Part shown: positions 3,001-42,169 of the stretch, piece by piece
How the letters are laid out: each line of letters begins with the position of its first letter
Numbering within the stretch: the stretch's first letter is position 1
Source of the DNA: a virus
Lineage: Duplodnaviria; Caudoviricetes
DNA length: 55,452 nucleotides
IMG/VR virus record: IMGVR_UViG_3300049896_000004
Location: 1-55,452 of that record
Reading direction: 5' to 3' (one strand)
Notes under the pieces: generated by a model
Told to the model about the DNA's origin: nothing
Seen by the model: the letters and a program-made list of their open reading frames with translations, nothing else
Database searches by the model: none
Position numbers and translations under genes: made by a program

Positions 3001-3855
3001 ACTCTTGGTGAACTCCTCGCTGGTACCGGTCAGGGCAGCGGTGAACGACTCCTTCACCCCGGACAGGGCAAGCTGGAGCGCACCGAACGCCGCACCAGCC
3101 ACGGCCACCGCGGCCGGGAGGGCGGCGAGGATGCCGACCATCGGGGCCAGGGCCGCCCCCAGCACAAGGACTCCCTGAGCGGCGGCCGCCGCCGCGATCC
3201 CGACGGCCCCGAAGGCGAGGAGCCCGCTGAGCGCGCGGCCGACCCCGCCCGCGATGCTGGCCAGCCCGGACATGGCCCGCGAGAACCGGCTGCTGTCGAC
3301 GTCCGGATTGACGTTGACCGTGACGTCCGGCGGCCGGTGCGCCCGGATAGCGTCGTCGAAGCCGGTCAGGTCAGGGATGACCCGGATCCGTACGCGCTCG
3401 CCCGCAAGGAGGGCGCGCAGCCGCGCCATGAACGTGCCGATGTCCGGGGTCAGGTCGACGTTCAGCGCCGGCAGCTTGTGCCCGCGCACGGCCCGGGAGA
3501 GCGCGTCGAGGTCGGGGACCAGGTCGACCGGGAGCTGTGGCAGCTTGTGCCCGCGAACAGTCCGGTTCAGGGCCTCCAGGTCGGGGAGCAGGTCGACGGT
3601 GAGCGGCGGCGCCCTGTGAGCGCGTACGGCGTCGTCGAAGCGGCCCAGGTCCGGCGCGACGTCGACGGATACCGTGACGGCGGCCAAGCCCCGCTCGATG
3701 TTCCGCCGGATCGCGTCGCCGACGTCCCGCGTCGCCCGGTCCAGCGCCCGTCTGATCCGCAGCCCGAGGTCTCGGGCGTCCGCGACCGCGTCGGCGTCGT
3801 CCAGATCAATCGTGATCCGGGCGGAGCCGAAGTCCTCTTCGTCGCCAGCAGCCAC
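1..3855 (-). CDS. Tape measure protein (3' end outside window)
   Basis: Not in ORF track. GTG at 3855 gives MAAGDEEDFGSARITIDLDD; Ala/Leu-rich helical sequence, N-terminal VDLxPDLxAL..VRGHKLP repeats, and ALDIRSP at the window edge in the same frame; follows the tail chaperone pair. Confidence 0.9.
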   Translation of the reverse strand, partial: MAAGDEEDFGSARITIDLDDADAVADARDLGLRIRRALDRATRDVGDAIRRNIERGLAAVTVSVDVAPDLGRFDDAVRAHRAPPLTVDLLPDLEALNRTVRGHKLPQLPVDLVPDLDALSRAVRGHKLPALNVDLTPDIGTFMARLRALLAGERVRIRVIPDLTGFDDAIRAHRPPDVTVNVNPDVDSSRFSRAMSGLASIAGGVGRALSGLLAFGAVGIAAAAAAQGVLVLGAALAPMVGILAALPAAVAVAGAAFGALQLALSGVKESFTAALTGTSEEFTKSLEKLSPKAQAAAREVRALKPAFDNLKRSVQDAFFGQIEGQITKTSTALKGPLSAGLKGVSKQWGRVASESLKALASQRGVSAVTSVFDAAEAAVGGLADSTRGVTDGLLAIVDSVSDAFGKKLGGAIGGVGERLGTFLTKAADSGQAVRWVSAAVAAFKDLGGIVVNVGSILKSVFSVADEAGGGLLQNLRNLTGSLREFLNTDAGESALTGIFSTVGEIASQLGPILAELVTQLGKLAPAIAPVFSEIGPAIQELLSAVGPLLTEFAPSLEIVAAALGDTFAGLDFSGLGSAVGQVVEALAPLLPLAGEVANSLAEVLGPVLENLARLFGPIIEQVAGALIPVLPELSASLARVAEALKPVVSALGEGLGDAIKELLPPLLEQLPKLVDELLPAFEKLADVLTPLIPKLIQLAVKAIKPLIPLLPKFVSYVSKLVDIFTAMLEKGVEVVQFFRELDESIKSFGDAAEDVGKRIGEFVTSVLDYFRDLYNELVGNSIVPDLINGIVDWFTQLPGRVLDTLTGFVDSVVLYFSELPGKIAEQLTTLGTSLTTTLETGFTQGVDAVVRFVGQVVDYLTGLPGRAVESLATYGSLLYERLVSGGTTAYNAVVEFAVKVINYLRGLPGRAGEALASLGSRLADRARAAGASLLAEITSFVGRAIEYVRGLPGRAASALSGIRSALVRAGADMIGGFISGVRSRAADLVSAARKVISGAIDAADDVLDFGSPSKVFIKLGKDTGAGFAIGLSGTASQIQAAARRVTEGVIKIGREIGIGFITSLTGTAAQIKSTTTKLANDIAAAFKGVKTTVDDRLIALVQTSNVRLQKLAVQRDAIAKRLEEAQKFAGDLAKSTLSNFSLQNLIQGDDGASTTSVVRGLKAAIFQVKAFTKQVDTLAQRGLNKSLLEQVLGLGPEKGAEIATALSQADKATLARINDLQKQLVTASDKLGRTGADALYDSGKAAGEGFLAGIKGQQKAIEKLMIDIAKGMQRAIRKALDIRSP

Positions 3856-3882
3856 CGGGCAACCTCGCGTGTGCGAAGGGTT

Positions 3883-3903
3883 GCCCGGCCCAGAACCAGC
3901 GGC
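3883..3903 (-). promoter_or_regulatory. Late-gene leader motif GCCGCTGGTTnTGGGCCGGGC, copy 1 (tape measure)
   Basis: 21-nt motif, 20/21 positions invariant across four copies; 27 nt before the start codon. Confidence 0.8.
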
Positions 3904-3912
3904 AGTGCCAGG

Positions 3913-4245
3913 TTAGCCGCCCGCGCCCCGTGCGAGCTGGGCGTCTTGTGCCGCGAGCTGCGCCATGAGGGTCTTGGCCTGGCCGGCGTTCATCGCTGCC
4001 CCTGGGTGGCGCGGCGCACCGCGGGTGCGCTTCATGCCCTTCGGCGGGGCGTACAGCCGCGCGTGGTTACGGGCCCGTTCCTTGTCGTCCTCAGCAGCCT
4101 GATCCATCGCAGCCTCAGCCGCGTTGAGCATCGTCCTCAGGCGCCACTGGCGCGGATCGACGCCCGAGAGGACGAGCGACCCTTCCCACCCGTCCCAGCC
4201 CGCGATGATGCTGGAGCAGAGCCGTTGGACGACCCAGTAGGGCGG
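3913..4245 (-). CDS. Tail assembly chaperone, frameshifted (gpT-like) portion
   Basis: The -1 frame is open from 4245 (PYWVVQRLC...WRLRTMLNAAE...LYAPP) and lies between the chaperone and tape measure genes. Confidence 0.7.
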   Translation of the reverse strand, partial: PPYWVVQRLCSSIIAGWDGWEGSLVLSGVDPRQWRLRTMLNAAEAAMDQAAEDDKERARNHARLYAPPKGMKRTRGAPRHPGAAMNAGQAKTLMAQLAAQDAQLARGAGG

Positions 4246-4676
4246 CTATCGCCGCCCCCGTACAGCTCGACGGCCGTTTCCATCAGCTCGACGAGGATGC
4301 GTCCAGGCAAGGCGATGCCCTTGTCCACGACCGCCGCACCGGTGCCGGCATCTTCTACGGCAGCTTCCGCCTCTTCGCGGGTGAGGTGGACGCTGACCGT
4401 GCCGCCGTCGACGAGGACCTCGAACCGGCTGAACTCGGCGGCAGACTCCGGGGTCATGAGGCGGGCCAGGAAGATCTTCATCTCGCCGTACAGCTCGCGG
4501 ATCCGCGTCGCGGACAGCTCAGCGGCGTCGCCCCCGCCCAGGGTCTTCTGTACGTCCTGGAGGCGGCCGTACGCGTCCAGGAACTCGTCCCCGTACATCT
4601 CGGGCTGGAACAGCAGCAGATACGGACCGACCGTGATCTCGTGCGGCTCGGTGTTGAATGCGATGGTCTTCTTCAC
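4137..4676 (-). CDS. Tail assembly chaperone (gpG-like)
   Basis: Position upstream of tape measure; acidic helical protein ending YGGGDSRPT plus a Ser-rich tail. Confidence 0.75.
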   Translation of the reverse strand: MKKTIAFNTEPHEITVGPYLLLFQPEMYGDEFLDAYGRLQDVQKTLGGGDAAELSATRIRELYGEMKIFLARLMTPESAAEFSRFEVLVDGGTVSVHLTREEAEAAVEDAGTGAAVVDKGIALPGRILVELMETAVELYGGGDSRPTGSSNGSAPASSRAGTGGKGRSSSRASIRASGA

Positions 4677-4703
4677 GGGTGTGCCCTTGTCTCCCGCACG
4701 TGC

Positions 4704-4724
4704 GCCCGGCCCATAACCAGCGGC
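4704..4724 (-). promoter_or_regulatory. Late-gene leader motif, copy 2 (tail chaperone)
   Basis: GCCGCTGGTTATGGGCCGGGC, with a TACCCT -10-like box just upstream. Confidence 0.8.
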
Positions 4725-4811
4725 GTGGCCAGAAGGGTAGCGGACCGGGATAAACCGCTGATCTAGCTCAAATGAGGGTGAAGCGGGTGCCCGCGGCGGA
4801 AGGGTAAGGGC

Positions 4812-5072
4812 ATGACCTTCTTCCGCCGCCGCCGTCCGGCGCAGCCCTCCTCGTCGTCCCCCGCCCCGGCCTCCTCGTCGTCCACGCCCTCGTCGACAGG
4901 CCGGCCCGCGACGACCTTCTACGACCCGGCCATCTACAGCACCGACTACAGCGCGCCGTCCAGCAGCGGCGGCTCGTCCTGCGACAGCAGCGGCGGGGGA
5001 AGCTCATCCTCTTCCTCGTCGTGCGACAGCGGCGGCTCGTCGTCCTGCGGCGGGGGCGGCGGCAACGACTGA
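4812..5072 (+). CDS. Small Ser/Gly/Cys-rich protein antisense to the tail operon
   Basis: Fills an intergenic gap; GGGTAA 5 nt before ATG and no RBS; SSCDS/SSCGGG repeats. Confidence 0.6.
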   Translation: MTFFRRRRPAQPSSSSPAPASSSSTPSSTGRPATTFYDPAIYSTDYSAPSSSGGSSCDSSGGGSSSSSSSCDSGGSSSCGGGGGND

Positions 5073-5134
5073 CTGAGCGGGCAGTGGGGACAGCCCCGGG
5101 CGTGACTGTCCCCACTGGTCCCGATGGCCGGCCG

Positions 5135-5512
5135 CTACCGGCCCAGCCTCAACGCCCTGGCCATGAAGTCATTGGCGCGCGTGCCCGGGTGGCGCACCAG
5201 CTTGGCGAACACCGTCGTCCCGTCGACCTCGAAGCGCAGAGCCTTCGCCCGGCGCGGCCGGATCAGGTGCGGGCGCGTCCCCTTCAACACGAAGATCACG
5301 GCAGGGTGGTCGCAGGTGATGACGCCCTGGAGCCCGCCCGGCCCTTCCTCAACCCGCCAGCGCACGAAGTCCCCCATGCTGCCCGGGGCCTCGGCCTCAG
5401 CGATGTCCGCGACGCGTTCCGTCCGCTCCTCCAGCTTCCGGTACGCGCGGCCCCCACGGCGCCGCAGGAGCCGCGCGAGCGCCCCCTGATCGATCCGTAC
5501 CTCTACGCCCAC
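5135..5512 (-). CDS. HK97 gp10-like tail-completion/neck protein
   Basis: GTRPHLIRP..AKALRF..VRHPGT..NDFMARAL motif. Confidence 0.75.
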   Translation of the reverse strand: MGVEVRIDQGALARLLRRRGGRAYRKLEERTERVADIAEAEAPGSMGDFVRWRVEEGPGGLQGVITCDHPAVIFVLKGTRPHLIRPRRAKALRFEVDGTTVFAKLVRHPGTRANDFMARALRLGR

Positions 5513-5522
5513 GGCAGCCCCC

Positions 5523-5687
5523 TCACGGCTCTACCAGCACGTACGACGGGCCCACCCTGTCCTGATGAACCGTCGGCTCAGCCACCGGCATGTTCGAGAT
5601 GTCGCCATAGCTGTACGCCTGCACCACCAGGTCCCCGTTCTCGGCCTGGATACGGAGCAGGTCCGCGATCAGTTCGCTGATCCTCAC
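5523..5687 (-). CDS. Small hypothetical protein (54 aa, MRISELIADLLRIQAENGDLVV...)
   Basis: Below the ORF-track cutoff; GTGA overlap with the upstream stop; fills the gap exactly. Confidence 0.7.
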   Translation of the reverse strand: MRISELIADLLRIQAENGDLVVQAYSYGDISNMPVAEPTVHQDRVGPSYVLVEP

Positions 5688-6286
5688 GGCGAGTCCTCCT
5701 CAGGACAACGACAGTTCACCAGGCCGACCGTCACGCGCTGCTCGACGCCGGCGCACCCGCCCTGAGGACCCACCTGGCGTTGGATCCCAACGGAGTAGAT
5801 CAGGCCCTGGCGGCGCGTGCCGAGGCCAGGCAGGCAGCAGTCCAGGGCATTCACCACGCTGGCCCCGTCGATGTTGATAACCCGGGCTGCGGCCGCCAGG
5901 TCCTCACAGCTCGGCGGACACCCATCGTCGCTCGGGACCGGGACGCAGCGTAGGACTGTAATGACCAGCTCGACCGCCGTCAGCTGGGGCAGCACACATC
6001 CCCGCTTGCCGCGGACCTGGCTGTCCCTGCTCTCTGTCGACGGGAAGGTCTCAAGCGAGGACTGCCACATCCGGGCGACGTTCACCGTGAGCTGCCCGCC
6101 GGTGCCGCCGCTCCCGTCGCACGGGTCCTCGCAGGAGTCCCAGGCTGCCTGTCCCGGGACGACACAAGCCCGGCACGGACAGCCCGGCTGCCCGGGGATC
6201 TCCACCGCCGCGGCGTCGAGGAACTGGCACACGCATCCGAGGACGCCTTCGGTGAGTTCCTGGACGGCCAGCAGACTCAGGGCCAT
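5684..6286 (-). CDS. Putative tail terminator / head-tail joining protein, Cys-rich
   Basis: Likely start MALSLLAVQEL at 6286; gene order; GPQGGCAGVE motif. Confidence 0.6.
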   Translation of the reverse strand: MALSLLAVQELTEGVLGCVCQFLDAAAVEIPGQPGCPCRACVVPGQAAWDSCEDPCDGSGGTGGQLTVNVARMWQSSLETFPSTESRDSQVRGKRGCVLPQLTAVELVITVLRCVPVPSDDGCPPSCEDLAAAARVINIDGASVVNALDCCLPGLGTRRQGLIYSVGIQRQVGPQGGCAGVEQRVTVGLVNCRCPEEDSP

Positions 6287-7083
6287 GTCGTCGTCCTCGG
6301 GTGCTTGTAGTCCGGGCTGTAGACCCGGGAGGCGGACGTCATCCGGTAGGGGTTGACCGAGGCGAGCCACAGGTCGGCGAGGGGCAGACCGGTCCGCCCC
6401 TCGCTGTAGATCAGCGTGGGATCGGCCATCGTCAGCTCGTACCCCTGCCGGACGACCCTCGTGACGTTCTTGTTCGCCTTGCAGCCGCACGTGCCCGGGG
6501 AGCAGCCGCGCAGCAGGTGACAGGTCAGCTCGGACACCGCGGCGATAGCAGCTGAGTCGAGGGGAAGGCCGGTGCGGTAGGTGACGGTGAGGGTCCCCTC
6601 CGCCCCCGCCGGCGCGGCCATGTCCTGACAGTCCGGCCAGCATTCGCCGTCGAGACGCACCAGGAGGTTCGCCGAGTCGACCCGGTAATCGACGCCGCCG
6701 CCCGCGAGGACTGTCCCGCCGTCGTTGACCTCCACGATGTCGAACACCGGACCGTCGAGGCGGATTTCGCACAGCTCGCTGCACGAGCAATCCTGCTTGC
6801 AGCCGCACACCGAGGCGTTCCGCCACTGCCCGTCGACGCCCAGGTACGGGACCCACGGACCGGACCCGCCCCAGTTCACGAACAGCGGATAGCCGTCCAT
6901 ACAACTGCGGCGGCACGGCCTCACCGTGATCGGGCAGGACGGCCCGAAGCGCCGGCCGGACAGGGCCCAGAGAATGAACGACGCGGCCGTGGCCCATCGC
7001 GTCACCTGGGCGGGGTCGACATCGTCGATGTCGCAGCACAGCTCTGTGTCCCATGGCTCACACGGGCCCATCTGGATCGGCAT
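6277..7083 (-). CDS. Putative head-tail adaptor, Cys-rich
   Basis: Start MPIQMGPCEPW via TGATG overlap; LWALSGRRFG, VVRQG and TGLPLADLWLASVNP motifs; gene order. Confidence 0.65.
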   Translation of the reverse strand: MPIQMGPCEPWDTELCCDIDDVDPAQVTRWATAASFILWALSGRRFGPSCPITVRPCRRSCMDGYPLFVNWGGSGPWVPYLGVDGQWRNASVCGCKQDCSCSELCEIRLDGPVFDIVEVNDGGTVLAGGGVDYRVDSANLLVRLDGECWPDCQDMAAPAGAEGTLTVTYRTGLPLDSAAIAAVSELTCHLLRGCSPGTCGCKANKNVTRVVRQGYELTMADPTLIYSEGRTGLPLADLWLASVNPYRMTSASRVYSPDYKHPRTTTWP

Positions 7084-7787
7084 CAGTACCTCGCCCGCTC
7101 GTACCGGCACCGCTCGGGGAAGGCGCCGCGGATGAGCTGGCCCACGTGCCCGTTCTCAAAGGCGTCCGGCATGGTCGACAGAAACCGGGTCTCCGGGCCG
7201 AAGCCGCGGGGCGCCCGGTAAGCGATCTTGCAGTCGTCGGCCCGCTCGCCCCCGATCCCGGCTAGGACCCCGTACACGGTGCGCTTGTGCGCGTCGTGCC
7301 CCGGCGCCGCGTCGAGGGCGGCGAGCATGCCGGCCTTCTCCACCGGCAGAGGGACGTGCAGGTCGTACGAAAGCGGCTCCTCATACCCGCGCCCGGTGAG
7401 CCACGCGTACGTCGCGCGCAGCTCCTCGACGTACGGGCCGGCCCGGTCGGTGCGCGCCGCGATCAGCTCCCGCATCGGGCCACGGTGCAGGACCGGCATC
7501 CCGTCCGGGAGCGGCCGCATGACATAGGTGTCGTCGTCCGCCCACACGAACCGCCCGGACACCTCGGGGTGTGAACAGGCGGCCCGCATGGCGAGAGTGG
7601 TGTTGGCGTAGCTGGTGCCCTGCTGTCCCGTCGGGATGTGTCCCACCTCGTCCGTCAGCCAGGGATGCCGGTGGCCGACTGTCCAGACCCGCCGGTGCGG
7701 GACGTTGGCCGTCCAGGAGCGCAGCGCCCATCGGAGCTGCCTGCTGGCGGCGGCCGCCCGCACCGGCACGACGAGGTCGAGGGCCAT
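7083..7787 (-). CDS. Stealth-like (hexose-1-phosphate transferase/glycosyltransferase) protein
   Basis: DLVVPV, LRWALRSW..NVPHRRVWTVG, FVWADDD and YDLHVP resemble Stealth conserved regions. Confidence 0.55.
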   Translation of the reverse strand: MALDLVVPVRAAAASRQLRWALRSWTANVPHRRVWTVGHRHPWLTDEVGHIPTGQQGTSYANTTLAMRAACSHPEVSGRFVWADDDTYVMRPLPDGMPVLHRGPMRELIAARTDRAGPYVEELRATYAWLTGRGYEEPLSYDLHVPLPVEKAGMLAALDAAPGHDAHKRTVYGVLAGIGGERADDCKIAYRAPRGFGPETRFLSTMPDAFENGHVGQLIRGAFPERCRYERARY

Positions 7788-7790
7788 GAG

Positions 7791-8495
7791 TCAGGACGAG
7801 GTCAGGCAGACGCCGCCCGAGACCGGCACGTAGTCACAGATCGCTTCGGGCGGCTCGATGTTCGTGAGGAACGTGCGCCGGTGGCAGGACTGTCCGATCG
7901 GGGTGAGCATCGTGCCCGGGGTGCCGGCCGCGTCGATCGGCATCACGTTGTACGGGCCGACGCCCCAGCCGCCGCCGGTGCGGGTCGCCCCGCTCAGCGT
8001 AAGGTTCGCCGCCTCGCTGCCGACCTCCAGGTCCCCGAGCTGACCGTTCGTCACCCACGGCAGCAGGAAGTAGATCCACTGCCCTCCCGTACCGTCCGCC
8101 TCACAGAGGTCCTCGCCCAGGACCTCCGCCCACAGCTCGATCGCGAAGCCCGTGTCGCACTGGATGGTGCAGTCGTCGTGACCGATCGGCTGTCCGTCGA
8201 AGCCGAACACGACCGGGTTGCCGGTGGTCAGTTCGATGAACTCCGGACTGACGGAGAAGAACGACAGCTCGAGGTCATAGCCCTTGAAGGTCGGGCATCC
8301 GCGCTTGAAGCCGCAGACCTTTCCGTTCGCTGCCTTGTACTCGACGTCTTCGCCCTCGTCGACGTTGGCGTTCATGGCGAGGGTGGCGAAGCAGTCGAAC
8401 ACGAAGCCGTTGTCGACGCCGCAGACAGGGCGGCCGCAGGAGTCAAGCCGGGTTACGCGGATCGTGTCCGCATTGGCGATCAGGGGACAGGCCAT
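7791..8495 (-). CDS. Major tail (tube) protein
   Basis: Start MACPLIANAD with GGAGG RBS; IRVTRLDSCG, KAANG.VC, FAIELW and YFLLPW; size and position. Confidence 0.75.
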   Translation of the reverse strand: MACPLIANADTIRVTRLDSCGRPVCGVDNGFVFDCFATLAMNANVDEGEDVEYKAANGKVCGFKRGCPTFKGYDLELSFFSVSPEFIELTTGNPVVFGFDGQPIGHDDCTIQCDTGFAIELWAEVLGEDLCEADGTGGQWIYFLLPWVTNGQLGDLEVGSEAANLTLSGATRTGGGWGVGPYNVMPIDAAGTPGTMLTPIGQSCHRRTFLTNIEPPEAICDYVPVSGGVCLTSS

Positions 8496-8525
8496 CAGGG
8501 CCTCCATCACACGAGTGTGGTGTCG

Positions 8526-8546
8526 GCCCGGCCCAGAACCAGCGGC
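8526..8546 (-). promoter_or_regulatory. Late-gene leader motif, copy 3 (major tail)
   Basis: GCCGCTGGTTCTGGGCCGGGC, with TATGCT -10 box upstream. Confidence 0.8.
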
Positions 8547-8600
8547 GTCGTGACCAGCATAGCCAGCCGACCGCCGGACAGGCCGTGGACCTGCACCGGA

Positions 8601-9980
8601 TCAGGCCGGCACCAGAGTGGCCGCGAGCACGCGGACGGCGTCCGCCCACACCGTGAGCTCCCGGCCGGTGCGCTCCGAGAGGTATCCGCTGCGCGCGAGC
8701 GCGGCCGCCGCCGCCGCGTCCCGGCCCGGCCCGTCCCCGTACAGCCGCTGTACGGCCTCACACCAGGCCCGGGTGTCCCCGCGGTCGATGAACGTCCCAG
8801 CGGCGCCCAGGGCCTCACGCAGGCCCGGCGTCGGGTGCGCCAGGACAGGGATCCCCGACGCGCACGCTTCGACCGCCCCCATGCCGTACGACTCGTACAC
8901 AGAGGGCGCGACGAGCAGCCGGGTACGGGCCCACACCTCGTCACGCATGCGGCTCGTCTGTCCGATCAGCGTCACGTTCGCCGGCATGCTCTCCCTGACC
9001 TGCTGGCCGTGTGCGCCGGCGACGCCGAGGAACGGCAGATGCGACAGCGCGCGGGCGACGTCCCGCCACAACTCGACGCCCTTGTCCCGGTTCAGGTTGA
9101 CGAGGGTCACCGCAGTCCCGCCCGCCGGCGCCCGGTGCTCCCCGGGCAGCACCGGCGGATGCACGATCAGGCCCGGCGTCCCATCGACCTCGCTGTACCG
9201 GGCGGCGAGCGAGGCCCGCACCCATTCCGTGTTGTAGACGATCAGGTCCGGGCTCGCGGCGAGGGCCTGCGCGGTGACGGCGTGATCGGAGTGCATGAGC
9301 AGCACCGACCGCGCCCCGACCCTGCGGGCGAGGGCGGTCGCCCGGGGCGCGTAGTAGTGATGCGTGACCATGACGTGCGGCCGGATACGGCCGATCAGGA
9401 GCTCAGCGGCGTACGGGCCGAGGTGCAGGTACGGCACGCCGTCGACCTCCCACGACGGCGGCGCCTCAGGCATCGACGAGCACACGACGAGCACGCCGAC
9501 CCCGGCGTCCCTCAGCGCCCGCATGAGGGTCTGCAACATGACCTCAGACCCGGCCCGCCGGTACGGCACGCCGTAGTGCACCCAGGCCACGACCCTGACC
9601 GCCTCGCCCGCGAGCGGGTCGACCGGGACCGGCGTCCGCGCGGCCGCCCGATCCCTGGCCGGCATGAGCTGAAGGCAGGACTCCAGGAACTCCCCCGTAT
9701 CGGCGTCGCCCTGACCGAGGAGCAGCCGCGGCACGCCCCTGATCTCGCGGGCGACCCGCTGCCCCCTCAGATCCCCGGCGTACGTGACCAGGACGTCAGG
9801 GCGGGCCCCCTGGAGGGCCTGCCACCAGAAGCCCAGCGGCCACACGCTCACGTCGCCCCGGACGTACGGAGCGGCGGCCTGCCTCGTCGTCGTAACGGCG
9901 TGGACCTCGTGCCCGGCGGCCGCCATCGCGACCAGGTGCTCGGGGTCCTCGTAGGCGGGCAGGAGCGCGAGGATCCTCAC
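8601..9980 (-). CDS. GT-B (GT4-like) glycosyltransferase
   Basis: AGSE, DKG and PSVYESYGMGAVEACASGIPVL motifs; GTGA overlap with the upstream gene. Confidence 0.9.
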   Translation of the reverse strand: MRILALLPAYEDPEHLVAMAAAGHEVHAVTTTRQAAAPYVRGDVSVWPLGFWWQALQGARPDVLVTYAGDLRGQRVAREIRGVPRLLLGQGDADTGEFLESCLQLMPARDRAAARTPVPVDPLAGEAVRVVAWVHYGVPYRRAGSEVMLQTLMRALRDAGVGVLVVCSSMPEAPPSWEVDGVPYLHLGPYAAELLIGRIRPHVMVTHHYYAPRATALARRVGARSVLLMHSDHAVTAQALAASPDLIVYNTEWVRASLAARYSEVDGTPGLIVHPPVLPGEHRAPAGGTAVTLVNLNRDKGVELWRDVARALSHLPFLGVAGAHGQQVRESMPANVTLIGQTSRMRDEVWARTRLLVAPSVYESYGMGAVEACASGIPVLAHPTPGLREALGAAGTFIDRGDTRAWCEAVQRLYGDGPGRDAAAAAALARSGYLSERTGRELTVWADAVRVLAATLVPA

Positions 9981-10498: not shown

Positions 10499-10532
10499 CA
10501 GGCTCCCTCGCCGGCCTCGACGGCGAGGATCA

Positions 10533-11075: not shown

Positions 11076-11082
11076 GGGGGCC

Positions 11083-13167: not shown

Positions 13168-13176
13168 GCGTGGCTC

Positions 13177-14280: not shown

Positions 14281-14341
14281 GCGGGCCTGCTTCCTGGGAG
14301 ATGGGCGGGCACTGATGCGGTGCCCGCCCCTGCCCCGATGA

Positions 14342-17300
14342 CTAGCGCTGTGTCCAGACCACGGCGGTCTGTCCGCCGATGGCGTCGATGGACGTCGGGC
14401 CGGTGAGCGTGTTCTCGTCGGCTACCGACCAGGTCGCGGTGTACCCGGCGGGAAGGCCTGTGAGCACGGTGCCGGATTGGTCGGTCAGGGTGCAGGTGCC
14501 GGAGAGGACCGTCATGGTCACGCTCGTGAGCGTCCCCACCACGTCCCCGCCCGGAGTCCACGGCGTGTCTGCATCCGCGATCAGACGGCCCTGCGCGGTG
14601 AGCGTCGCCACTGTGTCGTCGCTCGGGCACGCCACGATGTTCGCGGCCGTGATCGCGGCTCCGGACACCGAGTCGATAAGGCTGATCGTCCCGTTGGCAG
14701 CACGAATCGCGGTGTACCGGCCCGACCCCGTATTAGTGCAGCCTTCGCCCACCGGCACGGGGCAGCAGTCGGAGCAGATGCCTACCGTGCCGACGGGGGC
14801 GAACGCGGCGCCCGCGAGGGTCGTGTTCGTCGTGGAGACCAGGACGCCCGTGACCGAGTTGAACCGGAACAGCCGGATGAACGCGGTGCCGTTCTGGTCG
14901 CACAGCACCTCTTCCACGAAGTCCGTGTCGGCCTGGACCGTCTGGGCACAGACCCCGACGGCGCCGACCGGGGCGAACGGCGTCGACCCGTCCAGCGTGG
15001 TGTTCACGATCGAGACGAGCGCGCCCGTCGTCGAGTCGTAGTTGTACCGGCGCAGGAACCGCGTCGGCGTGGCGTCGCACAGGACGAGGATTTCCTCGTC
15101 GCGGCCGGCCGCCTCGACGCCACCGCACACCACTGCATCGCCGGTGACGACGTACGGGGTGGTGCCGTCGAGGCCCGTGTCGACGACGCCGGTCACAGCG
15201 CCGGTCTCGTCGAAGGTGAGGCGGCGCAGGAACGGCACCGGCACGGCAGGGCCGTCGTCGCAGAGAGTCAGGACCTCGGCGTCAGCGCTAGTCACGCCGC
15301 AGGGCACGACTGTGAACCCGTCCGCGGTGGGGTCGAGGAAGTTGCCGAGCGAGTCGAAGAACGCGATCCCGTTCGGGGTCTGCGGCGTGTTCGGGATCGT
15401 GTCCTGATGCCGCGCCCAACCCGCGTGGACGGTCGTCCCGGTCGACGTGAGGGTGTAACAGATGCCCTCGCGGTCGGCGGTGTCCGGCTCACAGACCTGC
15501 ACCGTGCCCGTGACGTCGTACGGCGTCGTGCCGTCCAGGGTGAAGTCCGCAGCCGTGGGCGTGACCGAGCCGGGCGTGTAGGTGAGCTGCCTCAGGAACT
15601 GGGTGACCGTGCCGTCGATGCCGGCGTCGCACAGGATGACGCTCTGGCTGTTGGGGCAGCACTCGCTGTCGGCGGCCGGCTGGCACTGCTCCACGGTCCC
15701 GGTGACGGTGTACGGATCGCCGTCGAGAGTCGTGTCCGTGGTGGAGACGATCTCGCCGGTCTCGCAGTCCGTGACCAGGGTCCGGAGGAACTGTACAGAG
15801 GCGGTGCTCTCGCATCCCGCCAGTTCGACCGTCGCCGAGAACTGGTCGGCGGTCCAGCCCTTGGCGGTGCCGTGGAACGTCTCCAGGACCAGGCCGAGAC
15901 GCACGTCCCCACTCGCGAGCTCGGCGGCCGTGACCGGCATGCTCGCGGTGAGGGTCTTGACGTAGCCCGGCGGGGCGTAGGTGATCACGTCCTGGAACGC
16001 GGTGAGCGTCGTGCCCTTGAACAGCCTCAGTGCACCGTCCCACGCCTGGCCCGTACCGGGGCCGTTCTGGGTGACCCGCACGGACACGGTGAGGGTGCCT
16101 GACGCGTCGTCACAGCCGGCCGGGGAAGCGGTGACCTCACCGACCGCCATGTAGTACTGCTGGGCGGGCCCGGCGGTCGCCGGGAACGCGAGCGACCCGC
16201 CGTTCCACAGGGTGGTGTACGCGCCGGGGAGGGTCGTGAACTGGGTCTGCGCGACGTCGTTGACCGTGCCGTCCGTGATGTCCGGCTCGACGTCGAGAGT
16301 TCCGTCTGTGGGTACGTCACAGACCAGCACGGTCGAGGCGTTCCGGCAGTCCTCGGGGCTACAGCTACCGACCGTGCCGACCGTGGTGTACGCGACCCCG
16401 GCGAGGGTGAAATCCCGGAAGGAGTTCACCTGCGCCTGGTTGGTCGGGTCGAGGGACTGGACGTACTTCCTCAGGAACGGCCCGTTGTCGTCGCACAGGA
16501 CTTGGTCGGCCATGAACCGGCTTCCGGTGCATGGGCCGGCCGTCCAGGACTCCGGGGCGATGGGGGCGCCGCTGGGGCCTAGGAACTGCTCCTGCAGAGT
16601 GCCGCCCGACGGGTCGGTCACGAGGACCCTGATCGCGTTCTGTGCGATGCCGCCGACCGTCGCACACACGATGTCCGACGTCAGCATGTTGGACTGGCCA
16701 GAACTGGAGCCGCCCCCGCCGCCGCTGTCGGGAAGGCAGCACGCCGGGGTCGGGACCTGCGCCCAGAACTCGGCGTTGGTCATCGTCTCGCCGGTGTCGA
16801 CCTTCTGCCAGCCGACGACCGCGCCGCCCGCACACTGGGGCTGCCAGTACGAGCAGATCGTGTTGGTGGTCGTCTCGTCGGTGGTGACCACACAGGTGTC
16901 GTCGTCGGTGGCCGCGGTCGCGCGCTGGTCCGGGCGGTCGACGTAGGCGCGCATGTCGGTGAACAGGCCGCCGCGGGCGCCGCCGGCAGGGTTGTTTGTG
17001 GACAGTGCGAGGGTGTAGGTGCTGCCGCCGTTCAGCGGGATCGTCTGGGAGAACTGGGTCCACGGGTTGGGGCCGCCCGAGGCCGTGACCGACGGCGGGT
17101 TGCTGTTGTCGTCGATCAGGTCGCCGTTTTGGGCGTCGTCCGTGTCGCCGTTGTCCAGCGTGATCCGGTGCTGCTCGCCGGGGTCACGGGCGCCGTGCAC
17201 GACGCGGATGATGAAGTTGCCCGACGCGGGCACGGTGAAAGTCTGCCAGATGGTGGACCGGCCACCGGGCGGCGCACCATCCGACGTCATTTCCTGCACG

Positions 17301-18160
17301 GGCGTGCCACGTGGCGTCGGCGTGACGTTCTCGCCGTTGACGATGTCGCTGCCCCAGATTTCGAACGTCCGGCCGACATCGTTCGTTTCCCAGCCCTGGT
17401 TCGCGACGCTCGTGCACAGCGCGTCGTTCGCAGGCTGGTTGCCGGGGAACGGTCCCGGATCGTCCTGCCGCGACAGCAGGCGGAAGCCGTAGTTCCCCTG
17501 AGACACCGGCGGGTTGAGCGCAGGGGACTCGTTGTAGGCGGGGTTCTGGATGAGGTCCTGGCCGCCGTTGTAGACGAGCTCGATCAGGTTCGGGGGGGTC
17601 TGGTCCAGCCGGAGGCACTCGATGTGCACCGTCATCGGCTGGGCCGCGCCGCACACCTGGGGGATACCGGCGTTGGGGTTCGTGATGGTGACCGTGGCCG
17701 CCGCAGGAACCCGCCCCTCGATGAAGGTGGTCAGGTTCTGCCGGAAGGCCTCGCCGTCCGGGTCGTCCACTTCCCAGGTGATCCCGGCCGGGTTGCTGAC
17801 CGCGTCGACCTGGAGCGACTGGACCGCGAAGCCCGGGTTGATCGGCAGGGTGAGGTCGTACTGCCGGCCTGGGTGCTCGACCGGGCCCGTGCTCGTCGAC
17901 GTCTGGCAGAACTGCATCGGCGGCAGACAGGCCGCGTCGGGGCACGGCTGGAGCGTGCCCTGCGGCACGTACGGGTCACCGGTCGCCGGGTCGACGAACG
18001 TCGGCGGCCCGGTGGGGTTCCCGTCGCTGTCGTACTCGTACACCGCCAGGGCAGTGCCCAGGAGGTTGCCCTCTGCGTCGAGGTCGCACAGGAGGACCTG
18101 TTCGACGTCCGCCCCGCCTTCACCGGCACCGGCCCCGCAGGGCTGTGGCTCGATCGGCAT
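14342..18160 (-). CDS. Large acidic repeat protein (LCD..FLR repeats), probable head fibre/decoration
   Basis: Multiple LCD..FLR..TTLDG..Y..G.V..C units; located between capsid and tail genes. Confidence 0.65.
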   Translation of the reverse strand: MPIEPQPCGAGAGEGGADVEQVLLCDLDAEGNLLGTALAVYEYDSDGNPTGPPTFVDPATGDPYVPQGTLQPCPDAACLPPMQFCQTSTSTGPVEHPGRQYDLTLPINPGFAVQSLQVDAVSNPAGITWEVDDPDGEAFRQNLTTFIEGRVPAAATVTITNPNAGIPQVCGAAQPMTVHIECLRLDQTPPNLIELVYNGGQDLIQNPAYNESPALNPPVSQGNYGFRLLSRQDDPGPFPGNQPANDALCTSVANQGWETNDVGRTFEIWGSDIVNGENVTPTPRGTPVQEMTSDGAPPGGRSTIWQTFTVPASGNFIIRVVHGARDPGEQHRITLDNGDTDDAQNGDLIDDNSNPPSVTASGGPNPWTQFSQTIPLNGGSTYTLALSTNNPAGGARGGLFTDMRAYVDRPDQRATAATDDDTCVVTTDETTTNTICSYWQPQCAGGAVVGWQKVDTGETMTNAEFWAQVPTPACCLPDSGGGGGSSSGQSNMLTSDIVCATVGGIAQNAIRVLVTDPSGGTLQEQFLGPSGAPIAPESWTAGPCTGSRFMADQVLCDDNGPFLRKYVQSLDPTNQAQVNSFRDFTLAGVAYTTVGTVGSCSPEDCRNASTVLVCDVPTDGTLDVEPDITDGTVNDVAQTQFTTLPGAYTTLWNGGSLAFPATAGPAQQYYMAVGEVTASPAGCDDASGTLTVSVRVTQNGPGTGQAWDGALRLFKGTTLTAFQDVITYAPPGYVKTLTASMPVTAAELASGDVRLGLVLETFHGTAKGWTADQFSATVELAGCESTASVQFLRTLVTDCETGEIVSTTDTTLDGDPYTVTGTVEQCQPAADSECCPNSQSVILCDAGIDGTVTQFLRQLTYTPGSVTPTAADFTLDGTTPYDVTGTVQVCEPDTADREGICYTLTSTGTTVHAGWARHQDTIPNTPQTPNGIAFFDSLGNFLDPTADGFTVVPCGVTSADAEVLTLCDDGPAVPVPFLRRLTFDETGAVTGVVDTGLDGTTPYVVTGDAVVCGGVEAAGRDEEILVLCDATPTRFLRRYNYDSTTGALVSIVNTTLDGSTPFAPVGAVGVCAQTVQADTDFVEEVLCDQNGTAFIRLFRFNSVTGVLVSTTNTTLAGAAFAPVGTVGICSDCCPVPVGEGCTNTGSGRYTAIRAANGTISLIDSVSGAAITAANIVACPSDDTVATLTAQGRLIADADTPWTPGGDVVGTLTSVTMTVLSGTCTLTDQSGTVLTGLPAGYTATWSVADENTLTGPTSIDAIGGQTAVVWTQR

Positions 18161-18162
18161 GG

Positions 18163-18705
18163 TCAGCTCCTGCGGTTGTGGGTCTGCCGGCGGTGCGTAC
18201 GACGGCCGCGGGCGGTGGTGAAGGTCCGGTCGCAGACGTCACAGGGGTAGCCGTCGGCCGGCGCCCGGTCCTCGCCGCTTGAGTCGCTTCGGTCGCTGTC
18301 GTCCGGGTTTGCCGGCTCTTCGGGACCTGGGTCCCTTCCGTCCCTCGCCTCGTCGTCGTCGCTCGGGGGGGCGTCGTCGAGGGGGGCGAAGCCCAGGGAT
18401 ACGGCGTCGGGGCCGTACGCGGACTCTGGGACGGGCGGGAGGGGTTGACCGGGCTCCACCCACGTGAGGCCGTCGCCGTCGCCTCCATCGGGCTGCTCGT
18501 CGTCCTGGACGGGCACGTAGGGGCGGCCGTCGACGAACGCGCCGATCAGGATGCCCTCGGGGGCCTCAGGGAACAGCGCGGCGGGGACAGCGAACGCATT
18601 GTGATCGGCGGTGCGCACCTTCGGCGTCTGGGCGACGGCCCAGCGGGCGAAGCACTCCCGGCGGTCGAGGGCCGGCTCGACCCTGATGATCTCGGGCGGC
18701 GTCAC
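18163..18705 (-). CDS. Hypothetical protein with C-terminal C2H2 zinc finger
   Basis: YPCDVCDRTFTTARGRRTHRRQTH. Confidence 0.7.
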   Translation of the reverse strand: MTPPEIIRVEPALDRRECFARWAVAQTPKVRTADHNAFAVPAALFPEAPEGILIGAFVDGRPYVPVQDDEQPDGGDGDGLTWVEPGQPLPPVPESAYGPDAVSLGFAPLDDAPPSDDDEARDGRDPGPEEPANPDDSDRSDSSGEDRAPADGYPCDVCDRTFTTARGRRTHRRQTHNRRS

Positions 18706-19526
18706 GGGCAGACCTCAATCCGTACAGCGGCCGCCATACAGCAGGCGATCTCTACGACGAACGTGCGCTCTGCGAGGACGAGCCGGTCATTCGTCGTGAT
18801 CCGAACGGACTGGGCGTCCGTCTCGGGGATGTTGAAGACGCCCTCGCGGCGGACGCGGATCGGGCCGGTGACGTACAGCCACGCCTCGCCGGCCTCCGCG
18901 GGGAGGCAGTCCGGGGGGCCGACGTTGATGCCGTAGCCGCTCCCCATGATCACGCAGTTCCCGAGGAGGGTCCGGGCGCTGACCCCGTCGAGGTGGACGA
19001 GGTTGCAGCAGCCGAGGAGCGCGGCCGCGCCGGCGGGGACGTGTAGCACGCCCTGACCGCCGTAGTTCTCGCCGAGCCAGCCTTCGAGGACGGCGACGCC
19101 CTGCGCGATGTTCAGGGCCCCGGCCGCCGGGGTCAGGTCATTCGCCGTGGCGAGGGGGCAGAGGACTTCGGACATCAGCCACTGTTCGAGGGCGCGCTGC
19201 TCGCCCATGCGCAGGGCCTCAAGCGAGGTGTCGACGGCTTCCTGATACGAACGGCCGACCGGGTTGCACTGGGTGCCCGCGTAGATCGTGACGGGGGCGG
19301 CGGTGCAGGTGGTCGGCCGGGCGAACTCCTTGGGGCCTGCCGGGGGGTCCTCCTCGCACCAGGTCCAGGGGTGAGCGTCGGCACACGAGCCGTCTTGCCA
19401 GTCCGTGCCGAGCAGCTCGTGCGGGTCGGTGACGTCGATGATCTCGGTACAGCCGCCCAGGATGCCGTGAGGCAGGGGCGTCCCCGCAATGGCCGGCACG
19501 CGCCGGCGGTTTCCAGCGGTAGGCAT
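18702..19526 (-). CDS. Capsid-associated (minor capsid/decoration) protein
   Basis: Immediately after the major capsid gene; GAGGAGG RBS; TNDRLVLAERTFVV C-terminus. Confidence 0.55.
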   Translation of the reverse strand: MPTAGNRRRVPAIAGTPLPHGILGGCTEIIDVTDPHELLGTDWQDGSCADAHPWTWCEEDPPAGPKEFARPTTCTAAPVTIYAGTQCNPVGRSYQEAVDTSLEALRMGEQRALEQWLMSEVLCPLATANDLTPAAGALNIAQGVAVLEGWLGENYGGQGVLHVPAGAAALLGCCNLVHLDGVSARTLLGNCVIMGSGYGINVGPPDCLPAEAGEAWLYVTGPIRVRREGVFNIPETDAQSVRITTNDRLVLAERTFVVEIACCMAAAVRIEVCP

Positions 19527-19554
19527 GTCGCTTCACCCCTCCTCGGGTGGGACA

Positions 19555-19588
19555 CGGCGGGCCCGGTGTCAGGTACACGGGCCCGCCG
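19555..19588 (-). terminator. Hairpin after the major capsid gene
   Basis: CGGCGGGCCC...GGGCCCGCCG inverted repeat. Confidence 0.5.
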
Positions 19589-19606
19589 CGCGTGTGAGGG
19601 GCTGGG

Positions 19607-21247
19607 TCAGGCTGCTGGGCAGGTCATCAATGTCTGTGCGCCGGTCTCGCCACTGGGGCAGACCGGGACGGTGACGTACCTCGTGTCGACGCTGCGGTCG
19701 ATGAGGGCGATGCACTCCTCGCTGAAAAGTGCGGTGTAGTCGTTGGTCACGAACTTCGTGCTGTCGTGCACGACCCCGAGGTTGACCTCCTCGCCTCGTC
19801 CGGCCTGGAGCGTTCCGGCCGGGTAGATGAGGAAGCTCACGGTCGCCGGCCAGTCGAGGGCCGGGAGCGGGCCGCCGATGTCGGTCGGGACGGCCGGGGC
19901 GAGGTTGCGCGCCCACTGGATGCGGACGCCCAGCGGCGTGAAGACGGCCTGAACGTCGGCGGTCGAGACCTCTTCGATCCCGACGCCGTTCCTGCGCGCG
20001 AGGTCGGCGAGGAACAGGTTCCTCGACCACCAGGGGAAGACGACCTCGAGGGCCGTGCTCTCGCAGAGGCTGTGACGCTCGATCATGTCGGCGGCCTGGA
20101 GCGCGACGGCCGCGAAGACCGGGGACAGGGCGCCGAAGGTCGCGCCGATGGTGACCGGCGTCGCGGAGGCGACAGCGGCCTGGAACAGGACGGTGCGCAG
20201 CCTGATCTCATGCGCGACCATGGCGTTGCGGAGGTACCAGGCGACGAGCTCGGGGAAGTGTCGCTGAGTCAGGATGCCGGCCTGGAGGCAGACACCGACC
20301 GCGTCACAGCGGACCTCGACCGGGTCGGGGCAGGGGATGACGAAGCAGGGCTTGGTGGCGCCTGCGATGTCGTCCGCCTCGGTGTGGATCCACGTGAGGG
20401 CGCCGACGTCGAGGGACAGCGGCTTGTAGTAGCGCAGGCCGCCGCGCGCGAGCTGGACTTCCGGCAGGTCCCACAGCATGTCGGGGCACGCCGTGTCGGT
20501 GAGCTCGTAGATCGTTTCGGACGGGGCACACCAGCCGCCGGACGCGATCAGGTCCCGGTTCGGGAGACGCCGCTGGTCGGCTGCACGGATCGCGACCTCT
20601 GTGCCCTCGGGGGCGCTGGACGAGTCCGTGACGATCAGGCCGTCCTGGTACGGGTGCCGGTACGAGATGACCTGGCCCACGCCGCCGCCTGCGGTCTTCA
20701 ACGCATTGGCGCGGCTGATGATCCCGGCGGTGATCTGGCCGAACTCCAGCGGGGAGCCTGGGGTGTAGCCAGGGACGTCGACCGCCGCGGTGATGTGCGT
20801 GGTCGGGGCCGGCGGGTCGGGCAGGACGCGCGGCTGGTTCGCCCGGACGCCGGCCAGGTTCAGGGCCGGGCGGCTGCCGGACGCGACGACCGCGGCCGGG
20901 GCGGCGGGGACCTCAGCGGCCGGGGTGACAGTGGTCGGCTCGATCGCGGCCGTCTCCGTCGCCGCCGGGGCCTCGTCGACGGGGGCGTTCGGGTCGTCGC
21001 CGCGGACGCGCGCGGCGAGCTGCTCGATCTCGGAGGCGGCGGCCTGGGCGGCGGTGACGCGCGAGCCCTGCTCTGTGCGGATGTCCTCGACACAGGTCGA
21101 CAGGGCGCGCAGGCGGCTCATGGACGTGTCGGTGACGGTCGGTTCGGCGGACAGGGCGGCGAAGGCGTTGCGGGCGCCGTCGAGGGCCTCAGCAAGCTGC
21201 TCGTCGTCGAGGCTGGTGATGTCCTCGGGGATTTCGTACTCGGCCAT
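19607..21247 (-). CDS. Major capsid protein with N-terminal scaffold-like region
   Basis: Coiled-coil N-terminus, Ala/Pro linker, ASGGWCAPSETIY and LPEVQLARGG motifs; gene order. Confidence 0.85.
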   Translation of the reverse strand: MAEYEIPEDITSLDDEQLAEALDGARNAFAALSAEPTVTDTSMSRLRALSTCVEDIRTEQGSRVTAAQAAASEIEQLAARVRGDDPNAPVDEAPAATETAAIEPTTVTPAAEVPAAPAAVVASGSRPALNLAGVRANQPRVLPDPPAPTTHITAAVDVPGYTPGSPLEFGQITAGIISRANALKTAGGGVGQVISYRHPYQDGLIVTDSSSAPEGTEVAIRAADQRRLPNRDLIASGGWCAPSETIYELTDTACPDMLWDLPEVQLARGGLRYYKPLSLDVGALTWIHTEADDIAGATKPCFVIPCPDPVEVRCDAVGVCLQAGILTQRHFPELVAWYLRNAMVAHEIRLRTVLFQAAVASATPVTIGATFGALSPVFAAVALQAADMIERHSLCESTALEVVFPWWSRNLFLADLARRNGVGIEEVSTADVQAVFTPLGVRIQWARNLAPAVPTDIGGPLPALDWPATVSFLIYPAGTLQAGRGEEVNLGVVHDSTKFVTNDYTALFSEECIALIDRSVDTRYVTVPVCPSGETGAQTLMTCPAA

Positions 21248-21279
21248 GGGGGGCTGCTCCAGCGATCTTCACTGAGGTA

Positions 21280-21300
21280 GCCCGGCCCAAAACCAGCGGC
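21280..21300 (-). promoter_or_regulatory. Late-gene leader motif, copy 4 (major capsid)
   Basis: GCCGCTGGTTTTGGGCCGGGC. Confidence 0.8.
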
Positions 21301-21320
21301 GCATAACGCCGCAAAACCGG

Positions 21321-21356
21321 CGGCGCTACCGCACAGCATGCCATGCGGTAGCGCCG
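21321..21356. terminator. 13-bp-stem hairpin upstream of the capsid leader
   Basis: CGGCGCTACCGCA-N10-TGCGGTAGCGCCG. Confidence 0.55.
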
Positions 21357-21378
21357 GGGCGCTGGGACCTGCACCTGG

Positions 21379-42059: not shown

Positions 42060-42169
42060 GGGTGGCTGCTCCTGTGACGGACGAATACGACGGAGCAGGA
42101 TAGACGGGACACGACTCGGCCCCCGCGCGGCTGGTGGACCGTGCGAGGGCCGGGCGGTCGCGGAGGGTC

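Follow-up and report, generated by a model that had tools for sequence, protein, structure and literature searches.

A probable RNA hairpin in the leaders of Streptomyces phage virion genes and its possible role as a translational switch

We analysed a viral contig from the IMG/VR database (record IMGVR_UViG_3300049896_000004; Duplodnaviria, Caudoviricetes), the whole of which (55,452 bp, G+C approximately 70%, estimated completeness 75%) is referred to below as the window, and in which the 21-nucleotide (nt) motif GCCGCTGGTTnTGGGCCGGGC occurs four times, each time shortly before the start codon of a virion gene. We find that this motif is very probably a conserved hairpin formed by the sense-strand RNA and that it is probably an element of the 5′ leader of the transcript. 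We propose, at a probability of about one half, that it acts in cis, as an RNA element located at the 5′ end of the late mRNAs for virion genes or close to it, and works as a translational switch of these genes. The original prediction, made from the letters of the window, had put forward such a cis-RNA switch; the sense-strand RNA, the probable leader position and the competing structures are upheld by our computations, whereas the switching itself is a proposal.

The motif and its family

All four copies in the window are exact matches without mismatches on the minus (coding) strand (Table 1), where 0.04 matches are expected from 100 shuffled sequences, none of which contained four or more. 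No further copy was found in the window at up to three mismatches. The copies lie exactly where the original prediction had placed them, which made no mention of the strand, and the distance of 27-32 nt that it gave between motif and start codon was also recovered: the motif ends 27 nt before the GTG of the tape measure gene and of the tail assembly chaperone gene, 30 nt before the ATG of the major tail gene and 32 nt before that of the major capsid gene. The start listed for the major tail gene, GTG 8510, is probably wrong; ATG 8495 is favoured because a GGAGG Shine-Dalgarno (SD) sequence (8504-8500) stands 5 nt upstream of it and because the resulting N-terminus, MACPLIAN, is common to the orthologues. 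Gene products in the window were identified by PHROG and Pfam searches, the chaperone being named solely from its match to gp26 of the phage TurkishDelight (45% identity).

The window represents part of the genome of a Streptomyces phage whose nearest named relative is TurkishDelight, a temperate Streptomyces phage (capsid identity 67%). The next relatives, with capsid identities of approximately 49-54%, are the lytic Woodruffvirus phages TP1604, YDN12, Xkcd426, Mischief19 and phiSAJS1, which form cluster BG (PMC5511901). A search of phage records for near-identity with 5.3 kb of the window gave no match.

TurkishDelight carries nine core copies of the motif, all on its plus (coding) strand and all between 12.9 and 30.6 kb, in the virion module, where they precede the genes for the capsid, the major tail protein (two copies in tandem), the chaperone and the tape measure protein (again two in tandem) as well as three genes of the tail-fibre region; the remainder of its 93.6-kb genome has no core copies. 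Among 50,697 phage records, the exact motif type is found only in TurkishDelight, and a scan of IMG/VR detected the core in at least 119 viral-contig stretches. The analyses below use a pool of 204 unique copies, to which 54 viral contigs, 31 from isolate genomes and 23 from metagenomes, contribute 168. The pool was collected by exact core match among the matches listed, deduplicated, and restricted to copies with a -10 box or to loci with at least two copies, a filter that drops the 134 of 347 core matches having neither. Up to eight copies occur per contig, and no locus has copies on both strands. Matches in a bacterial genome collection are mostly single chance matches, complete cassettes being confined, among the matches listed, to Streptomyces contigs. 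Judged by their N-termini, the genes downstream of the motif encode the capsid, major tail, chaperone and tape measure proteins and several probable minor tail families. Many of the motif-led probable minor tail genes have Cys-rich N-termini, for example MARCGCGG, MASVCVCSDYF and MANCCGAPRCTC.

In the cluster BG phages, a loop variant of the motif, GCYGCTGGCGKTAGGCCGRGY, precedes the capsid and major tail genes, and a second variant, ACYGCTGCGCGYTAGGCCGGGT, precedes the tape measure gene; a scan for the BG type returned mostly chance matches, a -10 box being present at 25 of 122. In one viral contig, a single leader contains tandem copies, one of the BG type and one of the main type (L103:8709-8775), an arrangement that bears on whether one factor reads both loops. 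As the original prediction had suggested, we built a covariance model from related phages and made a comparison with Rfam. The model finds the family, cluster BG copies included, and nothing in one Microbacterium and one Mycobacterium phage with homologous capsids. No Rfam family matches: Rfam 15 at the gathering score gave 0 matches in the whole window, and at an expectation (E) value of at most 1 the three loci around the copies gave five weak, unrelated microRNA or small RNA (sRNA) matches, none of them at the motif.

The covariance model also matches window positions 42123-42159 on the plus strand (20.9 bits), opposite to the copies and between two genes of the minus strand; the sequence there, CTGG followed by 12 nt and GGGCCGGGC, has the appearance of a GC-rich hairpin or terminator and not of a family member. 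The capsid leader of the Mycobacterium phage Pipefish (about 11810-11892) contains CTGG-CTGCG-GGCCGGG approximately 38 nt before the start codon, which is core-like, lacks the outer stem and is unscored by the covariance model; Pipefish also repeats a different promoter-like block of approximately 50 nt before its capsid and adaptor genes. Lastly, the degenerate copy GCCGCCGGTTTTGCGGC that the original prediction had seen before the capsid copy is present at 21324-21308, yet the family model gives it no match at E≤5.

We found no description of the motif in the literature on Streptomyces-phage intergenic motifs or under the motif string, TurkishDelight, TP1604, YDN12, phiSAJS1 or Woodruffvirus. 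The main text of the cluster BG announcement does not mention it (PMC5511901), and the available main text of the Geonosis paper has 0 matches for "promoter", "motif" and "intergenic" (PMC11536984).

Covariation and the RNA hairpin

Positions 5-18 of the motif are invariant within the main type, and its ends vary together. In the pool of 204 copies, pair 1-21 is GC in 166, AU in 10 and GU in 9; pair 2-20 is CG in 191, UG in 6 and UA in 5; and pair 3-19 is CG in 136, UG in 42 and UA in 12. U3 accompanies A19 in 12 of 12 copies, U2 accompanies A20 in 5 of 5 and U21 accompanies A1 in 10 of 12, the A19 and A20 cases standing before different genes in different contigs. At these three pairs U·G occurs in 57 cells and A·C in 2. 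Because U·G is frequent and A·C almost absent, the pairing is that of the sense-strand RNA, and neither a cruciform nor a protein-read DNA palindrome is indicated.

The hairpin consists of an outer stem (1-3/19-21), a G4-C5 bulge, an inner stem (U6-U10/G14-G18) and a loop of 3-5 nt. We assessed this structure, (((..(((((...)))))))), on an alignment of 150 sequences, comprising 149 from the 195 unique 29-mers plus the fourth window copy, restored after deduplication; six likely chance genome matches and the tail of the list were left out. The structure is paired in 97.6% of cells, and 21 cells are doubly changed, compared with 3.4±1.6 in shuffled alignments, none of which (0/500) reached the observed value, while slid registers of the structure collapse. 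A CUGGUU/GGCCGG hairpin had been foreseen in the original prediction; a hairpin does covary, but in it G19 pairs with C3 and not with C5, since the rival C5-G19 pairing is broken in nine A19 sequences, is never compensated and shows no covariation. Tape-measure copies with CCGA or CCGT in place of GCCG regain a 3-bp stem by a one-base register shift (G0C1C2 with a GAC/GUC bulge), and the two BG variants retain both stems, their A1-U and A2-U20 pairs, bulged C and one paired deletion being compatible with this fold. RNAalifold returned the same hairpin for 22 tail leaders. For the isolated 21-mer, the covariation-supported fold is the ensemble centroid at -5.1 kcal/mol, near the minimum free energy (MFE) of -5.3 kcal/mol. 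Readings of the motif as a sigma-54-like site, a SARP-like direct repeat or a T-loop were discarded for misfitting spacing or a variable base at an obligatory position.

Position in the transcript

A TAnnnT box ends 6-14 nt 5′ of motif position 1 in 139 of 190 copies, whereas at random positions a box ends within 15 nt in 57 of 2000. No copy has a gap of 0-5 nt, and the commonest gap is 6 nt. The box-aligned consensus reads (G)(C)TAnnCT, with C at position 5 in 120 of 139 copies. The box-aligned copies show no -35 conservation, and a scan of window positions 3700-22000 for sigma-70-type -35/-10 pairs at 16-18 nt spacing found 0 sites. The usual distance from the -10 box to the transcription start site (TSS) in actinobacteria is 6-14 nt, a spacing that would put the motif near +1 to +9 of the RNA. 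That the gap has so sharp a lower limit suggests that the whole motif must be transcribed, in agreement with the view of the original prediction that it probably is. That view had relied on TAnnnT boxes before copies 2 and 3; both are present, although copy 1 has one too (Table 1), and the only box candidate of copy 4 is CATGCT (21340-21335), farther upstream. On the other side of the motif, a start codon with an SD-like sequence follows within 21-34 nt in 175 of the 204 copies, with a peak at 27-28 nt. Box and start codon are both present for 146 of the 204 copies; another 22 belong to tandem pairs, in which the box accompanies the first copy and the start codon the second.

Complementarity to the start region

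We calculated duplex energies between motif positions 12-21, together with up to seven following bases, and the start region of the same leader (-17 to +6). For 176 leaders the mean energy with their own start region is -17.2 kcal/mol, compared with -13.1 when the motif segment is shuffled and -12.7 against 95 non-motif start regions from TurkishDelight, Mischief19 and Xkcd426 (p 1.5e-21). When the start regions are permuted among the motif leaders the mean is -15.2±0.17, and the real value was reached in 0 of 200 permutations. Taken together, the shuffles, controls and permutations show that the complementarity of the start regions extends over both the invariant 3′ part of the motif and their own variable extension of it. 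In whole-leader ensembles, the start region forms on average 4.2 bp with the 3′ half of the motif and 5.4 bp with the bases that follow, and the outer stem of the hairpin has a probability of 0.013. The leaders have a mean z score of -0.77, and 22.7% of the 176 fall below -2, compared with +0.10 and 1% for the controls.

In the 24 orthologous tape-measure leaders, positions 18-24 pair with the spacer from the SD sequence to the start codon in a common helix, in which pair 23-45 is AU in 17, CG in 5 and UA in 2, with seven compensatory changes. This covarying helix and the excess complementarity to the leader's own start region agree with the competition between hairpin and ribosome-binding site (RBS) pairing that had been suggested from the four window copies. 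The 10-bp stem described for the tape measure gene, CCGGGCAACC (3888-3879) with GGTTGCCCGG, exists and dominates the predicted fold of that leader (MFE -30.3 kcal/mol, z -2.97). Structure is moderate in the capsid leader (MFE -26.4, z -1.66); there, GGGCU (21283-21279) can pair with AGCCC (21255-21251), which sits between the SD sequence GGAG (21260-21257) and the ATG. As a general claim, RBS-covering stems hold as a statistical tendency across leaders, but they are not universal, and the chaperone leader is weak.

Upstream of the capsid copy, the 21308-21356 region comprises a hairpin with an 11-bp stem that carries the CATGCT sequence in its loop, followed by a small hairpin, GCCGC-CGGTTTT-GCGGC (21324-21308), which is the degenerate copy of the original prediction. 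A terminator scan marks window 21296-21312 (minus strand), reading GCGGCG-TTA-TGCGCCGC, then TGGTTTTGGG, and a transcript reading through this region could use the 5′ part of capsid copy 4 as the descending arm and U-tract of this terminator-like structure. Across the family, pairing of upstream sequence with the 5′ half of the motif has a mean energy of -10.86, compared with -10.67±0.08 for permuted and -9.8 for shuffled sequences, an effect too small and marginal for such pairing to be taken as a general feature.

Two other partners for the motif were considered and set aside. Pairing with Streptomyces 16S rRNA gives -34.4 against -29.9±2.3 for shuffles, 3.7% of which do as well, and for the 16S 3′ end the proportion of shuffles is similarly 4.7%, which is unconvincing. 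For an antisense or sRNA-like complement of the motif, the window offers only two three-mismatch matches, both within coding sequence.

A candidate trans-acting factor

We considered as a candidate the 180-residue product of a gene located two genes after the capsid gene (Table 1), which has a conserved 65-residue N-terminal domain, an acidic linker, a C-terminal C-x2-C-x12-H-x4-H finger and a basic tail. Its match to Pfam zf-C2H2 (E 0.0013, 19.5 bits) lies below the cutoff of 25.2 bits. In the predicted structure, the confidence score (predicted local distance difference test, pLDDT) is approximately 95 in both domains, and the C-terminal end superposes on classical fingers with a root-mean-square deviation of 0.4-1.3 Å at non-significant E values; a fold search with the protein gave no match at E≤0.001. 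The finger is retained in TurkishDelight gp19 and in 13 IMG/VR relatives (…RGRDTHRRQAH), while cluster BG homologues have an Arg/Lys-rich tail in its place, a change that parallels the change in motif loop type. Homologues occur in 16 of 50,697 phage records, which are TurkishDelight (two records) and cluster BG phages only. That this zinc-finger protein reads the motif is a doubtful proposition: a one-finger C2H2 protein, produced from the capsid operon, would read the 5′ hairpin and activate the whole set of virion genes, an Arg-rich tail taking the place of the finger in the BG homologues. The protein could equally be a DNA-binding head component.

Other proteins were considered as the factor and dropped. 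A 68-residue protein encoded between the protease and capsid genes (21379-21585, minus strand) starts MPCACQGG, and an M-x-C-x-C start is shared by the homologues from TurkishDelight, the cluster BG phages, Pipefish (gp13) and Jayden (gp27); it was rejected, as Pipefish and Jayden are both motif-less. The protein encoded directly before the large terminase gene (31553-31978, minus strand) matches phrog_645, labelled "RNase E", a label also borne by TP1604 gp02 (L251:668-1183, listed with this window interval). It was likewise dropped, its sequence resembling a helix-turn-helix small terminase, and the "RNase E" label on phrog_645 proteins is, judging by sequence, probably misleading. Outside the virion module, TurkishDelight and TP1604 have in common a WhiB protein, an HNH endonuclease and TurkishDelight gp89 and gp112.

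Other features of the window

Nearly all window genes are carried by the minus strand, and the PHROG and Pfam searches also identified a head-tail adaptor. A GT4 glycosyltransferase and a methyltransferase are encoded between the head and tail genes (8601-10498, minus strand), and positions 33465-39397 (minus strand) encode two PAPS-reductase/DUF3440 proteins, a myo-inositol-1-phosphate synthase and a DegT-family aminotransferase.

Table 1. Motif copies, promoter-like boxes, leader elements and associated genes in the window. In copy 1, motif position 1 corresponds to 3903 and position 21 to 3883; energies are in kcal/mol.
Feature	Position	Strand	Basis or remark
Motif copy 1, tape measure leader	3883-3903	-	exact match; covariance model 37.9 bits, E 2.4e-9
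Motif copy 2, chaperone leader	4704-4724	-	exact match; covariance model 38.9 bits
Motif copy 3, major tail leader	8526-8546	-	exact match; covariance model 40 bits
Motif copy 4, capsid leader	21280-21300	-	exact match; covariance model 37.9 bits
-10-like box TAACCT	3910-3915	-	gap 6 nt to copy 1
-10-like box TACCCT	4734-4739	-	gap 9 nt to copy 2
-10-like box TATGCT	8556-8561	-	gap 9 nt to copy 3
GGTTGCCCGG, SD end through first base of GTG start	3855-3864	-	pairs with motif 16-21 + AACC (3888-3879)
Upstream capsid leader region	21308-21356	-	94-nt fold -47.6, z -2.43
Tape measure gene	1-3855, GTG 3855, runs past window end	-	phrog_305, E 5e-107
Tail assembly chaperone gene (by match)	4137-4676, GTG 4676	-	45% identity to TurkishDelight gp26
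Major tail gene	7791-8510 as listed, probable ATG 8495	-	phrog_792
Candidate trans factor (hypothesis), 180 aa	18163-18705	-	two genes after capsid gene
Major capsid gene	19607-21247, ATG 21247	-	phrog_777, E 1e-166
Portal/MuF-protease fusion	21585-25187	-	PHROG/Pfam

Discussion

The motif belongs to a compact cassette consisting, in order, of a -10-only box (GC-TAnnCT), 6-14 nt, the motif, approximately 12-18 nt, the SD sequence and the start codon. We propose that the leader has two mutually exclusive states, in which G19-C21 either closes the 5′ hairpin or joins a longer helix over the ribosome-binding region. Without a factor, the ribosome-binding region would be locked in the long helix, which is predicted to be thermodynamically favoured. 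Since the RBS-covering state is the more stable one, a factor that holds the hairpin closed would open the start region: by binding and stabilising the 5′ hairpin, it would withdraw positions 19-21 from the long helix, as Com does on the mom mRNA of phage Mu. The closed 5′-terminal hairpin may additionally protect the mRNA. That a conserved factor recognises the hairpin is suggested by the near-invariance of its bulge, loop and inner stem. Our computations establish the sequence family, the geometry of the cassette, the covariation of the outer stem and the excess complementarity to the start region; where the TSS lies, that a factor exists and which one it is, and that the effect is activation are inferences from them.

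Several observations weigh against such a switch. With regard to the hairpin, the copies are related by descent and are phylogenetically non-independent; the ten A1-U21 cases are all capsid leaders and may represent one event; the core at positions 5-18 never varies in the main type, so that the inner stem rests on two variant classes only; and the hairpin on its own is weak, with a z score of +0.97. With regard to the leader, the 5′ end is placed from -10-like boxes only, and the pool filter inflates the proportion of copies in which both box and start codon are present (146/204). The probability that the SD sequence is paired is 0.69, compared with 0.59 in controls; RBS occlusion is heterogeneous, 36% of leaders having z scores of zero or above; and the chaperone leader folds worse than its own shuffles (z +1.5). 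The co-occurrence of the candidate protein with the motif is confounded by common descent. Lastly, the very high expression that virion genes need sits oddly with an intrinsically closed start.

Among the alternatives, the hairpin could be mainly a 5′-terminal stabiliser or processing signal of the mRNA, directed against 5′-end-dependent RNases of the RNase J or RNase E type, in which case pairing with the start region would only tune translation and there would be no dedicated switch factor. Stem-loops at the 5′ terminus are known to stabilise bacterial mRNAs, and the start of the motif lies within 0-8 nt of the inferred TSS, G1 falling at +1 when the gap has its most frequent value of 6 nt; a hairpin closed from the first nucleotide is what this rule would lead one to expect, and many leaders are not strongly occluded. 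We nevertheless regard stabilisation as unlikely to be the main function, as it needs just a stem, whereas at least 15 bases in the loop, bulge and stem do not vary between phages that share only approximately 50-67% capsid identity; the hairpin is also thermodynamically weak and predicted to be outcompeted, as the low probability of the outer stem indicates, and stabilisation does not require a tight spacing of 21-34 nt to the start codon.

The hairpin in the nascent RNA could also load a factor onto RNA polymerase soon after initiation and let it pass the hairpin terminators that separate virion genes, as do boxB in the nut sites of lambda and the put sites of HK022. Lambda N is an arginine-rich peptide that reads boxB on the nascent transcript; the motif likewise has a promoter-proximal position and is a small hairpin with an invariant loop and a bulge, and the BG homologues of the candidate protein have Arg/Lys-rich tails. 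Some cassettes also follow strong hairpins, the 60 nt upstream having a mean z score of -0.85 with 19% below -2. Antitermination, however, requires neither a separate -10 box for nearly every copy nor a fixed distance of 21-34 nt to the start codon, and it leaves the complementarity to the ribosome-binding region unexplained. The nut and put sites act on termination, once per operon, without a fixed relation or complementarity to a start codon, whereas the motif has up to nine copies per genome. We consider this explanation quite improbable.

A factor-free kinetic device is a further alternative. The 5′ hairpin would form first on the nascent chain and briefly delay closure of the start region, so that each mRNA would be translated mainly while fresh, in the manner of the maturation gene of MS2, which is translated mainly on freshly made RNA through folding kinetics. 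The hairpin does lie 5′ of its competitor, and the equilibrium strongly favours the closed form. Such a device fits poorly with genes whose products are needed in the largest amounts and leaves the strict invariance of loop and bulge unexplained, and we consider it highly improbable. Finally, it is very improbable that the motif serves late promoters as a DNA site spanning +1 to +21, either a repressor operator or a loading site for a late activator: the sequence is asymmetric, has a single orientation to transcription, overlaps the inferred start site and contains conserved GCTGG and GCCGG blocks 11 bp apart, yet within single genomes positions 1-3 change together with 19-21 so that they remain complementary, with the U·G excess described above, no copy starts less than 6 nt from the -10 box, and the start-codon spacing and anti-start complementarity have no rationale at the DNA level. 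The stoperators of cluster A mycobacteriophages, which are DNA sites of the immunity repressor spread over the genome, resemble the motif as short, asymmetric, orientation-locked, multi-copy sites in actinophage intergenic gaps, but the motif shows covariation of the RNA type and is limited to the leaders of virion genes.

For the translational switch, the best functional analogue appears to be the Com/mom system of phage Mu. In it, a small protein with a zinc finger, Com, attaches to a hairpin in the mom mRNA and opens the start region; according to the available text, a specific short hairpin there adjoins a "translation inhibition structure" that hides the start signals (PMC6483171). The corresponding arrangement, a hairpin adjoining or overlapping a start-occluding structure, is predicted computationally in the leaders studied here. 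Com/mom serves a single gene, mom, whereas the motif precedes four to nine virion genes per genome and directly follows a promoter. The candidate protein is modelled with a classical C2H2 finger, and no Com homologue came to light, no search aimed at one having been made.

The closest precedent among actinophages, as far as the available text describes it, is the start-associated sequence (SAS) of cluster K, a 13-bp GGGATAGGAGCCC located 3-7 bp from the start codon that contains the SD core, is confined to non-structural right-arm genes and is suspected of acting in translation initiation through a host or phage factor; the inverted repeats of the extended SAS (ESAS) come without RNA-pairing support (PMC3203893). 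Like the motif, SAS are short, asymmetric repeats of actinobacteriophages that occur in one orientation just upstream of many start codons. On that description, the motif differs in being 21 nt long, in lying 21-34 nt from the start codon without including the SD sequence, and in preceding virion structural genes in all window and TurkishDelight copies; unlike SAS and ESAS, it follows a -10 box and shows RNA covariation.

On this analysis the motif would be Com/mom-like in its working and boxB-like in its form, membership in either system not being established, although its fixed spacing to the start codon and its anti-start complementarity speak against a boxB role, which its promoter-proximal position would allow. 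What would be new is the union of a putatively protein-read leader hairpin with occlusion of the start region as a promoter-linked cassette across a virion regulon.

Conclusion

To our knowledge, late-gene control in actinobacteriophages is largely unmapped, and the cluster K SAS and similar start-linked repeats have gone unexplained since 2011. The cassette described here is compact (approximately 80 nt) and modular, with a promoter box, a hairpin and a ribosome-binding region, and it offers a testable case in which covariation is clear, the competing helix is defined and natural variants number more than 200; the element would deserve a new RNA family entry. If the candidate zinc-finger protein does read the motif, it would be a Com-like activator of translation that serves a whole regulon and is subject to positive feedback. 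Such a circuit would be the first one defined for late genes in Streptomyces phages, and it would provide an example of RNA recognition by a classical C2H2 finger in a virus of bacteria. If the switch model is true, it would explain how capsid, tail and tape measure synthesis are co-ordinated in a large group of Streptomyces phages and prophages; the motif would then also mark virion genes in unannotated prophages and could provide a compact regulated expression part for Streptomyces engineering.

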